The notes below the pieces were generated by a model that saw nothing but the letters and a program-made list of their open reading frames with translations, ran no database searches and was not told where the DNA came from. The translations under genes were made by a program, and so were the position numbers. Below, in pieces: positions 26,124 through 31,883 of a DNA stretch of 64,000 bases. The stretch spans positions 85,068 to 149,067 of the forward strand of contig DATIIB010000009.1 in NCBI GenBank assembly GCA_035480055.1, written 5' to 3'. Origin of the DNA: Candidatus Saccharimonadales bacterium. GTDB lineage: Bacteria > Patescibacteriota > Saccharimonadia > Saccharimonadales > DASZAF01. How positions within the stretch are numbered: the first letter of the stretch is position 1; each line of letters begins with the position of its first letter.

Positions 26124-26945
26124 ATGTTGATAAAGTCTTTCTTGTTGGTGACAGGTTTTGCTGTCTCTACGCTGGCTGCTGCACTGACAGGAAGCGCTCA
26201 GGCGCAGAGTGCAACCGCGATCTCGCAAGGTTTTGAGACCAACGATCCAGGCGTGACCGTTGGAGCATTGGTGGTGCTTGAGCCAGGCAAGCAAGGCATT
26301 GTGCATCTCGCCACTCCAGACCAAGTGAGCGGACTGGCAGGCGTGGTTGCAAACAAGCCCTTAGTGGAACTCAGTAGCTCCGGCAAAAGCGTCCAGGTGG
26401 TCACCAGCGGCGTCACCAAAGTGTTGGTCAGTGACATTAATGGTGCAGTTAAAACTGGCGACAAAATAACCGCCTCGCCGATTAGTGGCGTGGGCATGAA
26501 GGCCAACAGCAGTACGCAAATTGTGGGCATCGCCCAGGCTGACCTCCAGAGTGGCGACGTTACCGAACGCACCATCACGGACAAACAAGGCAAGCAGCAG
26601 CAAGTGCATATTGGCGTGATTTCTGTGCAGATAAATATCTCGTACTATATGTCAACTAACGACAAGCGCTCGTTAGTTCCGGCGTTTCTGCAAGGGTTTG
26701 CAAACTCGATCGCGGGCAAAGATGTCTCGATCGCCAGGGTCCTGGCCAGTAGTCTGGTGTTGCTCCTGGGATTTATGAGTATCGCCGTACTTTTGTATGC
26801 TTCTATCCACTCCAGTATTATTTCGATCGGCCGCAATCCGCTCTCTGAGAATGCGGTCCGCAAAAGCCTCTTTGAAGTCGGAGCAATTGCAATTGGTATT
26901 TTGCTAGTTATGCTTATTGCGATATATTTAATCTTGACGACATGA
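26124..26945 (+). CDS. Hypothetical secreted/membrane protein, first gene of the ATPase operon: signal peptide, ~175-aa beta-rich ectodomain, C-terminal two-helix hairpin
   Basis: The signal peptide is MLIKSFLLVTGFAVSTLAAALTGSAQAQ. The C-terminal hairpin has TM1 at ~205-233, the loop SIGRNPLSEN and TM2 at ~248-272 with E251. The next gene starts 13 nt later behind a GGGAGAG SD. A TATAAT at 26088-26093 lies upstream. Confidence 0.75.
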   Translation: MLIKSFLLVTGFAVSTLAAALTGSAQAQSATAISQGFETNDPGVTVGALVVLEPGKQGIVHLATPDQVSGLAGVVANKPLVELSSSGKSVQVVTSGVTKVLVSDINGAVKTGDKITASPISGVGMKANSSTQIVGIAQADLQSGDVTERTITDKQGKQQQVHIGVISVQINISYYMSTNDKRSLVPAFLQGFANSIAGKDVSIARVLASSLVLLLGFMSIAVLLYASIHSSIISIGRNPLSENAVRKSLFEVGAIAIGILLVMLIAIYLILTT

Positions 26946-26958
26946 AGATGGGAGAGAC

Positions 26959-27561
26959 ATGAGCAGTACCGAAATTTTCTTAGCACTTGGACTTGGTGGT
27001 ACGGCGCTGGCTTGTGTACTGTGGGCACTTCGCTTGCGCCAAGAGTTACGGTTGCGCCCAACCGCCAAGCATTACACCATTCACTTGGATGGCACGAAGT
27101 TTTTTGCCGACATTGATGAAGCTGAGGTGCGACATTTGGTACACGACAAGCTGATGGCCTCGGCCGCGAAAGCCGCTGAACGATTTGAGCATGCCTTGAA
27201 CGAAGCAGTTCCAAAGCTACTCAGTAATGTCAGCGATATGAATGCCAAAGCGTTGGCGGCTGAGTTTGAAAAAAGCCAAGCTAGCCTTAAAAACCTTAAC
27301 AGCGAAATTCTGCAAGAGCACGCCGCCTTGCAACAAGAAGTCACCGCTCGCCGAACCGAGCTAATGGATGCGCTTGATAAAGAAATTGTGGCGCAATACC
27401 AGCAGCGCTTGGCTGACTTTGACCAACGGTTTAACGATGTGGTAAGTTCTTTTATTGTAGAAAGTTTTGGGCCAGATGTTGACCTCAGCGCACAAACCAA
27501 TTACATTTTGCAGCAGCTTGAGCAGCATAAAGAACAGATCAAACAGGACATCCAAGCATGA
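26959..27561 (+). CDS. Putative F-type ATPase peripheral-stalk subunit b-like protein
   Basis: It has one N-terminal TM helix followed by a ~165-aa predicted helical, coiled-coil-like region. It sits immediately upstream of the delta-like gene with a 4-nt overlap. The call rests on position and architecture only. Confidence 0.5.
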   Translation: MSSTEIFLALGLGGTALACVLWALRLRQELRLRPTAKHYTIHLDGTKFFADIDEAEVRHLVHDKLMASAAKAAERFEHALNEAVPKLLSNVSDMNAKALAAEFEKSQASLKNLNSEILQEHAALQQEVTARRTELMDALDKEIVAQYQQRLADFDQRFNDVVSSFIVESFGPDVDLSAQTNYILQQLEQHKEQIKQDIQA

Positions 27562-28049
27562 GCGGCACCACATTACCTGGTGAGCTGTATTCTCCTGAAC
27601 ACCTTGGGGTGGTCATTATTGAACTCCGCAACTTTATTGCCAGAATGAACGACCGCGAGGTGCGCAAAAAAGTTACAGGCGCCACGGGTGAAGCCATGCC
27701 GCCATTATCGCGCTTGGCCGAACGCCTTTTGCAGGCTAACGAGCTGACGCCCAGCAAGCTTGAGGGCATTGAGCAGCTGCTCAAAAAGCTCGAAGCCATT
27801 CGCACCGAAGCGCCCACGGTGCACATTGTGCTCGCCGAGCTGCCAGATGCTACTTTGCGCCAGCAGCTGGCTGATTGGTTTCGTACTCAGGCGGATTCGC
27901 ATACTTTGCTGACCTTCGCCATGCGCAGCGACATTGGCGGAGGATTGTTGTTGCAAAGCGGTTCGCACTTGTATGATTTTTCGTTCCGCACCCAACTTTT
28001 AGCCAACAAGCAACGGCTGGCGGAGATATTGACCCATGGCCGAAAATAA
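27558..28049 (+). CDS. atpH: F-type ATPase subunit delta (OSCP)-like
   Basis: The C-terminal signature ...MRSDIGGGLLLQSGSHLYDFSFRTQLLANKQRL resembles the OSCP motif (liGG..v..g....D.S....L). Its position lies between the b-like gene and alpha. Confidence 0.6.
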   Translation: MSGTTLPGELYSPEHLGVVIIELRNFIARMNDREVRKKVTGATGEAMPPLSRLAERLLQANELTPSKLEGIEQLLKKLEAIRTEAPTVHIVLAELPDATLRQQLADWFRTQADSHTLLTFAMRSDIGGGLLLQSGSHLYDFSFRTQLLANKQRLAEILTHGRK

Positions 28050-29469: not shown

Positions 29470-30326
29470 AACGCGCGCTCACCATTCAGCAAGAGTTGAC
29501 GCAGATTCACACCGTCGAAGACCTGACTGAGGTGTTTGAAAGTATTGCCAGTTTGCATATTGCCAAAATTCGCGACCGAGTAGTGGCCAGCAAAGAATTT
29601 TTTACCGAATTGTGGCAAACCTATCAGGGGCTACGCATTGATCCCAAAGCTCAACTGGCGAGACATACTCAAGCCAAAAAGGCCCAAGATGTATTTGTGC
29701 TGATTACCGCAGAGGGAAAATTGAGCGGGCAGATTGATGAGCAAATCGTCGAGGCCATGCAGGCCGCCTACCAAACACCGGCGCAAACCGACATTATCGC
29801 CATTGGTTCGCATGGCGTGGCGGCGCTGCGACGAATGGGCGTGCCGATCGCCAAGTCGTTTCAGCTTCCCGCTGGCGATGCCAATTTTACGGTGACGCCG
29901 ATAGTGGAGGAGCTCAACCAGTACCGGCATATCTCGGTTTTTTACCAAACATACGAGTCGCTACGAGTCCAAAAAGTGGCACACATTGAGCTGATTAGCG
30001 CAGTCCGCGAGCTTGGCGAAGCTGCCAAGGAAGAGCAGCAAGTGGTGAGTAGTCGTGATTACATCTTTGAACCAAACATTGACCAGATTGCCGATTATAT
30101 GGAATCGGTGATGATGGGCGTGGCGCTGGGTCAGGTGATTATGGAATCCAAACTCGCCCAATATGCCAGCCGATTTAATGCCATGAGCACTGCCAAACGC
30201 CGCGCCATGGATTTGGTAGTAGACTATCGTCACCAGTATTACCGAGCCAAACGGGCTGAGACCGATGAGCGATTAAAAGAAATGATAAAGGTGATCAAAT
30301 ATCGTGGACATAGTCGGACAAATTAG
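29466..30326 (+). CDS. atpG: F-type ATPase subunit gamma
   Basis: It is 286 aa. The N-terminal helix contains I..I..T..L..V...[12 protein letters not shown] and the C-terminal helix reads [39 protein letters not shown]. It lies between alpha and beta. Confidence 0.8.
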
Positions 30327-31605
30327 AGCAATCAAAGGGCTGGTCTGCGAAATCGAAATCGTAGGCACCAAGCCGCAACCCAAGCAACTATTGGTGCTGG
30401 CCGACCACCCTGAAGTCTTTTTGGAAGTGGCCAGTTACCCAAATCCCTTTACCGTACGCTGCATTAACCTGGCGGGTAGCTCAGAGGTTCGCCGTGGCGC
30501 GGGTGTGAGTCTGGCTGAGGGAACGATTACCGTACCCGAAGGAGCGGCGGCGCTCGGACGTATTCTTAATGCCTTTGGTGAACCGATCGACGGTGGCCCG
30601 CCTATCACTGGTGCCAAGCGGCGCAGCATTTACAATACCACGCCTCCAGCCGATGGAATTGGCGGCAAAATTGAGCTTTTGGAAACGGGCATCAAAGTCA
30701 TCGACTTTTTGGCGCCGTTTGTCAAAGGCCGCAAGATTGGCATTATCGGCGGCGCCGGTGTGGGCAAGACAGTGCTCACCATGGAGCTGATCCATAACAT
30801 TGCCAAGGACGAAAGTAAGCTGGCGATGTTTGTGGGTATTGGGGAACGAATCCGTGAAGGTTACGAGCTGTACGAAACGCTTAAGGAGCGCGATATCGTA
30901 AAGCAAATGGTCATGCTCATGGGGCAGATGCACGAAACACCGGCCATGCGCGCCTTGGTTGGCCACGCCGCAGCAACGATTGCTGAGTATTTTCGCGACG
31001 AAGAAAAGCGCGATATTCTGGTCTTTGTCGACAACATCTATCGTTACGTGCAAGCGGCGAACGAATTAGCCACCACACTTGGAACAATGCCAAGCGAAGG
31101 TGGCTACCAAGCCACGCTCTTTTCGGACCTGCGACGGTTGCAAGATCGCTTGAGCTCTAACCAAAATGGCACCATCACCTCGGTGCAAGCCATTTACATT
31201 CCCGCTGACGACCTAAGCGACCCGGCGGTGCAAGAGATTGCCCAGCAGCTTGACTCGACGGTGGTGCTGTCGCGAACCGTGGCCGAAAGCGGTATCCGAC
31301 CGGCGGTGGACCTTATTCGAACCGCTTCGTCGCTGCTTTCGCCAGAAGTCGTGGGCGACCGGCATTATGTACTTGCCACGCAGGTGCAGACCATTATGCA
31401 AAAGTACGACTCACTCAAAAACATCATCGCAATTATTGGACAGAGCGAGCTCTCGCCAGATGAGCGTCGCGACTTTGACCGCGCTCAAAAGCTAATCGCC
31501 TTCTTTTCTCAATCCTTCTTTGTGACCGAAGACCTGACCGGCGGCAAGGGAGAATACTTCACGCGGGAGCAAACTTTGCAAGGAATCGAGGAGATCCTGG
31601 TGTGA
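30304..31605 (+). CDS. atpD: F-type ATPase subunit beta (divergent, 433 aa)
   Basis: It starts with GTG. It has the Walker A motif [25 protein letters not shown] and [19 protein letters not shown]-equivalent reads SELSPDE. Confidence 0.88.
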
Positions 31606-31883
31606 TGCCAAGTGACGCAGTTTTAAAAGTGAAGGTGATGTCGCCGACCCAGACCCATTACGACGGCACTGCCGTTGCGGTGTCAGCGGTCAATCGTGTG
31701 GGGCCATTTGATATTTTGGCCAATCATGCCAACTTCTTTTCGTTGCTTTCTCCTGGGACAATCAAGATTAATTCCGGCCAGCGCACCATTGAAGTACCCA
31801 TTACGCAGGGCATTCTGAAAGTCACCCACAATGTGGTGACATTATTCGTGGACATCGAGCCAACGACCGCGCCGCGCAGCTAA
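31602..31883 (+). CDS. atpC: F-type ATPase subunit epsilon, short form (93 aa, beta-sandwich domain only)
   Basis: It overlaps the beta stop (GTGATG). The sequence [42 protein letters not shown] matches the epsilon N-terminal domain. The C-terminal helical hairpin is absent. Confidence 0.75.

Follow-up and report, generated by a model that had tools for sequence, protein, structure and literature searches.

What does an F-type ATPase operon do that carries the genes of the catalytic head, the rotor and the stalk, and none for the membrane subunits a and c? Such an operon lies on the plus strand of the window analysed here, which is a stretch of 64,000 nucleotides (nt) from the metagenome-assembled genome of a Candidatus Saccharimonadales bacterium (contig DATIIB010000009.1 of assembly GCA_035480055.1, positions 85,068 to 149,067), and the place of a and c is taken in it by a single gene, termed g1. 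The question is of wider interest, as in reviews an 'F-type ATP synthase' counts as puzzling for Patescibacteria, the cells of which have no respiratory chain. The operon probably encodes a second, paralogous F1-like ATPase of the Saccharimonadia (Patescibacteria) that is not an ATP synthase and instead would do mechanical work at the cell surface, with much higher confidence for the composition of the complex than for its rotation. This reading is carried by a conserved gene content, a beta clade of its own, the lack of a and c and of any conserved carboxylate or arginine in the membrane, and a predicted c-like fold in the g1 protein.

Gene content of the operon

The operon consists of seven co-oriented genes, g1 to g7. 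The original prediction, made from the sequence alone, had given coordinates and lengths that are borne out by a listing of the open reading frames (ORFs) and by an identical independent gene call on the source contig (lengths in amino acids, aa):

26124-31883, plus strand: the seven-gene operon
26124..26945, plus strand: g1, 273 aa, with a signal peptide (aa 1-30), an outer domain (aa ~33-174), an amphipathic helix and a C-terminal two-helix membrane hairpin
26730..26939, plus strand: c-subunit-like hairpin of g1 (aa 203-272), as predicted by an AlphaFold2 (AF2) model and Foldseek
26829..26840, plus strand: invariant cytoplasmic loop G-R-N-P of g1 (aa 236-239, inside SSIISIGRNPLSE), from alignments
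26959..27561, plus strand: g2, 200 aa, a peripheral-stalk (b-like) analogue by its architecture
27558..28049, plus strand: g3, 163 aa, delta/OSCP homologue (Pfam PF00213)
28036..29469, plus strand: g4, 477 aa, F1 alpha-like subunit (Pfam PF00006 and PF00306)
29466..30326, plus strand: g5, 286 aa, gamma-like central shaft (Pfam PF00231)
30304..31605, plus strand: g6, 433 aa, catalytic beta-like subunit (Pfam PF00006)
31602..31883, plus strand: g7, 93 aa, epsilon, beta-sandwich domain only (Pfam PF02823)

The junctions range from a 13-nt gap between g1 and g2 to a 23-nt overlap between g5 and g6. Gaps and overlaps of 13 nt or less had been claimed throughout, which is correct for most junctions and is exceeded by g5/g6 and by the 14-nt overlap of g3 and g4.

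Pfam matches were obtained for all five subunits that had been named delta-like, alpha, gamma, beta and epsilon. The alpha-like g4 is matched by PF00006 (6.9e-64) plus PF00306, the beta-like g6 by PF00006 (1.6e-63), the gamma-like g5 by PF00231 (5e-27), and g7 by PF02823 (2.5e-15) over aa 8-84. The C-terminal inhibitory helices of epsilon are absent from g7, the homologues of which are 82-106 aa long. The delta-like g3 reaches 23.8 bits with PF00213 at a cut-off of 22.3, and 21 of 29 members of its family match OSCP, the best with E 5.4e-9. All F1 subunits remain below the curated NCBIfam cut-offs for genuine F1Fo enzymes, alternate N-ATPases and the Mycoplasma Type 2/3 families: the best match of g4 is F0F1 alpha with 381.8 bits vs a cut-off of 554, g5 scores 76.4 vs 194 with TIGR01146, epsilon 50.9 vs 67.25, delta 18.3 vs 57.5, and g6 with TIGR01039 is slightly below the cut-off (455.8 vs 462.85). 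An identity as FliI/type III secretion system ATPase or as V/A-type ATPase was considered and rejected, as the NCBIfam scores for these are much lower.

The P-loop and catalytic motifs on which the prediction of an active head was based, including DNIYRY, are present in the translations, and across 48 betas of the clade described below the P-loop and the GERxREG motif are conserved at 100%, along with the adenine-binding Tyr, the Walker B Asp and the ELS core of the DELSEED loop. These betas stop ~27 residues before the end of E. coli beta. Among its 120 closest homologues, beta is 76-87% identical, which argues for an enzyme under strong constraint, and a pseudogenised remnant was rejected on the same grounds.

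The position of g2 is constant in the loci compared, always between g1 and delta. In its protein, a single N-terminal membrane helix is followed by a long helical region, which varies in length by coiled-coil insertions of ~90 aa, and the C-terminus bears a conserved motif. This is the design of a peripheral stalk, and the protein may be called b-like by architecture only: a b-like protein had been proposed here, and while the architecture agrees, no ATP-synt_B match was obtained by Pfam scan among the g2 proteins (0/32). In the alignment, the g2 membrane helix has no conserved Arg.

In L068, L069, L075, L077 and L079, the b-like protein is ~90-100 aa longer due to coiled-coil insertions (e.g. 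g2 at L079:10809-11708), and the same clade, which includes S. aalborgensis, also has longer betas (475-485 aa) and alphas (512-525 aa). Together, the longer stalk, alpha and beta suggest a taller complex in this clade.

Subunits a and c and the linkage of g1 to the F1 genes

The original prediction had found a and c not recognisable in the operon, and indeed neither Pfam nor NCBIfam yields an ATP-synt_A or ATP-synt_C match there. With a and c subunit queries, phmmer and hmmsearch gave no match in the 64-kilobase (kb) window or in 80 related loci. Neither subunit a (PF00119) nor c was found in the operon, the window or 54 related g1-type loci; as a positive control, the same searches picked up a in 29 canonical loci. 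There is also no conserved polytopic membrane protein in the neighbourhood of the operon across the loci compared.

Two alternatives had been offered for this gap, namely that the a and c genes lie elsewhere in the genome, or that the F1 part is coupled to a non-canonical membrane partner. According to the former, the operon would belong to an ordinary, divergent F1Fo ATP synthase and g1 would be an unrelated neighbour. This is what the databases imply when they label the subunits 'F0F1 ATP synthase', and reviews ascribe an F-type ATP synthase to Saccharibacteria. Beta is barely below the canonical atpD cut-off, delta and the b-like stalk, normally needed for the coupling to Fo, are kept, and the search for a and c in the source genome covered the 64-kb window only. 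The linkage of g1 to the F1 genes and the gene counts of complete genomes bear on this point.

A genome scan with g1 as the query yielded 80 loci, ~38 of which have the order g1-g2-g3-alpha-gamma-beta-epsilon. As such a scan is biased towards g1, a second one used only beta as the query and metagenome contigs as the target. In 14 of the 14 loci with a beta identity of at least 52% and enough upstream sequence, g1 is directly upstream, and a and c are absent. The same layout is seen in two distant loci, L131 and L149, with an identity of 44%, which makes 16 of 16 loci of the beta clade. In 31 further loci with a beta of at most 49% identity, recognisable a and c genes are present upstream, and the detection method thus works. 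The co-occurrence check that had been proposed for the 273-aa gene therefore gives a uniform picture, in that the gene is present in every related locus with upstream sequence. As to the divergence of beta, which was also to be checked, the 48 g1-linked betas form one clade that contains no canonical beta and stands apart from the betas of operons with a and c (neighbour-joining without bootstrap, the two distant members being weakly placed).

Published gene counts are in line with this. Southlakia epibionticum has a complete canonical operon (AtpZ-a-c-b-delta-alpha…; transposon sequencing table, PMC10633639), and TM7x and RAAC3 have one canonical set (BlastKOALA counts, PMC12592800 Table S5). 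In the complete genomes of S. aalborgensis, GWC2_44_17 and Mycosynbacter amalyticus, a, b and c are counted once and alpha, beta and gamma twice, and several CAILAD01 bins have alpha, beta, gamma and epsilon without a, b or c (same table). As L079, a relative of S. aalborgensis, has a g1 operon, these counts indicate that the g1 operon is an additional, self-contained ATPase and not a fragment of the canonical enzyme.

That a and c are encoded elsewhere to serve this F1 is unlikely, since in Saccharimonadia a, b and c come with an alpha/beta/gamma set of their own, with a further such set in some complete genomes, and some bins have F1 genes only. The betas of the clade, moreover, always occur with g1 and never with a and c, and g1 fills the a/c position just 13 nt from g2. 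The ordinary ATP synthase with a and c elsewhere is hence regarded as highly improbable, and of the two alternatives, co-occurrence and the separate beta clade favour the non-canonical membrane partner.

The g1 protein, its hairpin and its neighbours

In the g1 protein, a Sec-type signal peptide (AQA/QS) precedes an outer domain rich in beta structure, and the C-terminus consists of two membrane helices (AF2 model with a predicted local distance difference test score, pLDDT, of 77). It belongs to a family of at least 1460 proteins in one search, annotated as hypothetical throughout, and neither g1 nor g2 is matched by an NCBIfam model. A profile of the hairpin, searched against 1.84 billion representatives, found 665 family members at 50% clustering. 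The proteins are ~250-316 aa long with the hairpin invariably at the C-terminus, and among the top 150 of the 665 matches every protein is built like g1, and neither c subunits nor fusions to other domains occur. By Foldseek of the full-length model, the outer domain resembles phage capsid decoration or cement proteins (E about 1e-4), and the hairpin matched the c subunit of the Chloroflexus ATP synthase.

As a test of specificity, the hairpin was modelled alone (AF2, pLDDT 91) and compared with the PDB by Foldseek, and the best 50 matches were all F-type c subunits, from bacteria, chloroplasts and mitochondria. The template modelling scores were 0.66-0.82 for 48 of the 50 and 0.40-0.48 for two sodium c-ring entries, with a root mean square deviation of 1.7-2.4 A over ~68 residues for most and an identity of up to 27%. 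The hairpin shares with subunit c its topology (both termini outside, the loop inside), its length and an R-N-P loop. In F-type c subunits, the R-Q/N-P loop is the contact to gamma and epsilon. In g1, the most conserved stretch is this short cytoplasmic loop, SSIISIGRNPLSE, the GRNP of which is invariant in 31 of 31 aligned g1 proteins and in 35 diverse hairpins (A2 set) and is kept also in the distant L131 and L149. The gene that fills the a/c position had been described as unrelated-looking, and here the original prediction has to be revised: where atpE would be, the operon has a c-like C-terminal hairpin, and the models suggest that the c position is not really empty and instead is occupied by a fusion to such a hairpin.

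What the hairpin lacks is a conserved ion-binding carboxylate. The g1 position that aligns with the carboxylate of c is hydrophobic, there is no GxGxGxG packing motif in the hairpin, and Pfam gives no PF00137 match in g1. The nearby residue E251 ("FEVG") varies among E, Q, R, D, S and G and is ~6 residues off the canonical carboxylate site. This residue has to be considered in view of the idea that the complex is an ion-translocating pump with a new ion path made by g1, g2 and perhaps the neighbouring protein up179 (see below), without a canonical a. An E or Q near the start of the second membrane helix occurs in many g1 proteins, the full rotor and stator are kept, and Patescibacteria are thought in reviews to need an ATP-driven maintenance of the proton gradient. 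With the residue so variable and off-site, no conserved Arg in the g2 helix and no conserved polytopic membrane protein nearby, such a pump is very unlikely.

The operon has neighbours that may be relevant for its function:

26088..26093, plus strand: perfect TATAAT hexamer, a putative -10 element 31 nt upstream of the g1 start codon, read by eye from the sequence
25443..25982, minus strand: up179, a 179-aa single-pass membrane protein with a conserved outer domain of ~100 aa, a conserved neighbour
31966..41244, plus strand: giant surface protein of 3092 aa, with a cytoplasmic tail of ~70 aa, one membrane helix and a huge repeat outer domain

The hexamer may be the -10 element of an operon promoter; a consensus promoter scan made no call at this site, the reason being a poor -35. 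The outer domain of the giant protein is rich in Gly/Thr/Ala/Ser repeats, and Pfam finds nothing in it or in neighbouring proteins of no assigned family. The composition of the gene also gives rise to spurious antisense ORFs, many of them long, and shifts the GC and AT skew locally (31966-41244).

Nearly all g1 genes that stand alone (~40 loci) are followed, 70-160 nt downstream, by a gene whose product has 'VENxxQNT' conserved at its N-terminus, a membrane helix near residue 60-70 and, outside, a domain of 600 to more than 3300 aa. The 3092-aa ORF of the window is of the same type, and here, as throughout the subclade of the window, it is placed after epsilon. The giant surface protein is thus likely a functional partner or client of the ATPase. 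L027 (1488-2321 and 9908-10753) and L028 (109-912 and 9974-10813) have two g1 paralogues each, each of them followed by its own giant surface protein, and in L094 a second g1 copy (9585-10379) comes directly after epsilon. Upstream of stand-alone g1 genes, there are recurrently ParA, ParB and a divergent gene of ~220 aa that looks by eye like a signal peptidase.

The protein up179 is a neighbour in 17 loci, 16 of which bear the operon (15 from the scan with g1 and L084 from the scan with beta), and is several kb away in L060 and L098. In most cases its gene is divergent and upstream; L024 has it immediately before g2 in the same orientation, and in L036, L059 and L067 it comes right behind epsilon. 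It has no Pfam or NCBIfam match, and the sequence YQAVFLTNGQVYFGKL…LFWENLKD of its outer domain is highly conserved. It is absent from the more distant lineages. A possible role of up179 is that of an accessory subunit.

The mechanism that may be proposed from all this starts from an alpha3beta3 head that would be catalytically competent, to judge from its motifs, with the gamma/epsilon rotor and the stalk of delta and the b-like protein kept. In place of c there would be g1, a c-like hairpin without the ion-binding carboxylate, N-terminally fused to a secreted beta-rich domain, and it would oligomerise to a c-ring-like assembly, the invariant GRNP loops of which would be gripped in the cytoplasm by gamma and epsilon. 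Hydrolysis of ATP would then exert a torque or a conformational push on the g1 assembly, and as there is no ion path, the output would be mechanical and outside the cell, directed to the outer domains of g1 and probably to the giant surface protein. How the stalk would be anchored without subunit a is a matter of guesses only, and up179 or the membrane helix of the giant protein may be named. Such an action would be akin to that proposed for the Type 2 (gliding) and Type 3 (MIB-MIP) F1-like X0 ATPases of Mycoplasma.

There are several points that weigh against this mechanism. A membrane stator equivalent to subunit a that would resist the torque was not found in the searched loci, and ring formation by g1 is inferred. 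In terms of sequence, neither a profile of full-length g1 (A1) nor the hairpin profile (A2) found anything at E<=10 among all PDB sequences. With a c-subunit hidden Markov model against 9215 ORFs of the window and the loci, g1 was not enriched, the top matches being the glycine-rich P-loops of beta. When the hairpin was compared with c subunits by hhalign, the RNP/RQP loops were in register, with P=0.048 at first and P=0.01 afterwards, which is suggestive only and not significant. Other helical hairpin families, e.g. VirB2 pilins, can match c-subunit folds as well. With these sequence tests not significant, the hairpin is called c-like and sequence homology to c is not claimed; on the basis of the models, a descent from c is plausible but unproven. 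Finally, ~45 g1 paralogues share the same loop and yet have no F1 genes within 10 kb, so that g1 can apparently work without an adjacent F1.

This last point leads to a different view, in which g1 serves the giant surface protein as an anchor, chaperone or assembly platform, and the F1-like complex is bound to the membrane through g2 alone or acts on some other target. In its favour, big surface proteins are encoded directly behind the ~45 paralogues, the giant gene of the window comes after the operon, and AlphaFold3 models of the Mycoplasma system put the analogous two-helix protein away from gamma and epsilon. However, g1 is immediately upstream in 16 of 16 loci of the beta clade that were found without bias for g1, and the distant lineages L056-L082, L131 and L149 have g1 with the F1 genes and no giant gene downstream. 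In the g1 tree (neighbour-joining, midpoint-rooted and tentative), every deep branch is linked to F1 genes, and the stand-alone paralogues fall into two derived groups. This suggests, tentatively, an origin of g1 as an ATPase subunit and its later duplication beside surface proteins. As, in addition, the predicted fold points specifically to c and the cytoplasmic loop does not vary, a role of g1 only for the giant protein is considered rather unlikely, and the surface-directed F1-like ATPase with g1 as its membrane part is preferred.

A more far-reaching version of the preferred reading would be that g1 truly descends from c and assembles into a ring, which the intact F1 with its stalk would spin at the cost of ATP and without ion flow, so that an extracellular crown rotates or is put under torque and drives or repositions the giant surface fibrils with which the cells would hold on to host bacteria or move on them. 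This can be put forward tentatively at best and is doubtful as it stands. If true, this would be a rotary machine powered by ATP with its output of rotation on the outside of the cell, and it would suggest the same role for the two-helix 'Protein 5' of the gliding and MIB-MIP motors of Mycoplasma.

The surroundings of the operon are housekeeping genes, namely PBP1, TyrRS, RecG, HisRS, trigger factor, rpoBC and rpsL/G, then fusA, tuf and ribosomal proteins, and the base composition at the operon locus is unremarkable. In the otherwise conserved rpoBC-rpsLG cluster, a gene for an 842-aa protein without Pfam match is found between rpoC and rpsL (21763-24291, plus strand). Between tuf and the ribosomal protein cluster, there are mid-sized genes without Pfam match (47756-49243, plus strand; 50218-51723 and 44614-45666, minus strand) and a DAGK-family kinase gene at 49240-50229. 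Downstream of the operon in L094 and L098, a run of genes for secreted proteins extends from ~10.8 kb to the end of the locus (~17 kb), along with genes for a PKD-domain protein and for a membrane-anchored protein with weak matches (E 2e-4 to 8e-4) to a WxL-interacting-protein peptidoglycan-binding domain, and by sequence this looks like a surface-protein cluster.

Related machines and meaning for the Saccharimonadia

The closest known relatives are the Type 2/3 F1-like X0 ATPases of Mycoplasma, which are encoded by seven-gene clusters with alpha-, beta-, gamma- and epsilon-like genes and no a or c (PMC3369863, PMC12994834). The Type 3 enzyme (MSC_0618/0619 cluster) is needed for the cleavage of antibodies by MIB-MIP, and the Type 2 G1-ATPase is the gliding motor of M. 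mobile. The Saccharimonadia operon has the same number of genes, the same four kinds of subunits and likewise no a or c, and 'Protein 5' of Mycoplasma, compared here by its description, resembles g1 in its architecture, with a signal peptide and an outer domain followed at the C-terminus by two membrane helices that a short loop connects. Both systems belong to genome-reduced, host-dependent bacteria and have a link to cell-surface proteins. The Mycoplasma clusters exist in addition to a genuine F1Fo operon, and for Saccharimonadia such a coexistence follows from the published counts of other complete genomes. Unlike Mycoplasma, the operon has delta/OSCP and a b-like stalk and follows the order atpFHAGDC, whereas the 12-helix membrane protein and the small cytoplasmic 'Protein 2' of Mycoplasma are missing from the cluster, and g1 has 28 kDa vs 85-127 kDa. 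With the MSC_0619/MSC_0618 and MMOB1660/MMOB1670 models, alpha scores 259 vs 520 and 296 vs 600 and beta 375 vs 570 and 333 vs 850, all far below the cut-off.

With canonical F1Fo enzymes (atpBEFHAGDC), the operon shares the order b-delta-alpha-gamma-beta-epsilon, the catalytic motifs, the gamma shaft, the epsilon beta-sandwich and the OSCP domain, and the g1 hairpin has the size, the topology, the predicted fold and the R-N-P loop of c. It differs in that there is no subunit a, the hairpin has neither a conserved carboxylate nor GxGxGxG, g1 has an outer domain of ~170 aa and a signal peptide, epsilon is without C-terminal helices and beta without the last ~27 residues, and all subunits are below the equivalog cut-offs. 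N-ATPases (atpDCQRBEFAG) are second F-type operons as well, and alpha, beta, gamma and epsilon have sub-threshold matches to 'alt_F1F0' models. However, N-ATPases have a and c with ion-binding sites as well as AtpQ/AtpR and have no delta; no a, c or AtpQ/R genes are present in the operon, and the alt_F1F0 scores are far under the cut-off (beta 427 vs 752, alpha 329 vs 750).

Seymour et al. 2023 (PMC10066038) report that the beta of a non-respiratory 'symbiotic' Omnitrophota ATPase groups with Saccharimonadia betas, and they propose that the enzyme has a part in attachment to host cells or motility on them; a later paper repeats this. In a term search of the main text of the 2023 paper, accessory genes, the absence of a and c or a g1-like protein were not found described. 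The Omnitrophota clusters adjoin type IVa pilus genes, whereas a Pfam scan of the upstream genes of the window found no type IV pilus genes near the operon. No literature was found that combines 'F1-like' with Saccharibacteria or Patescibacteria.

If the preferred reading is correct, part of what is taken as an ATP synthase signal in Patescibacteria would be a widespread and strongly conserved F1-like motor without an ion path, and as its alpha and beta are counted as module M00157 in metabolic reconstructions, ATP synthesis would be over-called in these organisms. With the rotor and the stalk kept and a simple c-like hairpin as the partner, the system may be easier than the Type 2/3 motors of Mycoplasma for studying the transfer of F1 torque through a membrane to surface proteins. 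Giant surface proteins paired with g1, finally, point to a candidate machinery for attachment or movement in bacteria that live on other bacteria.

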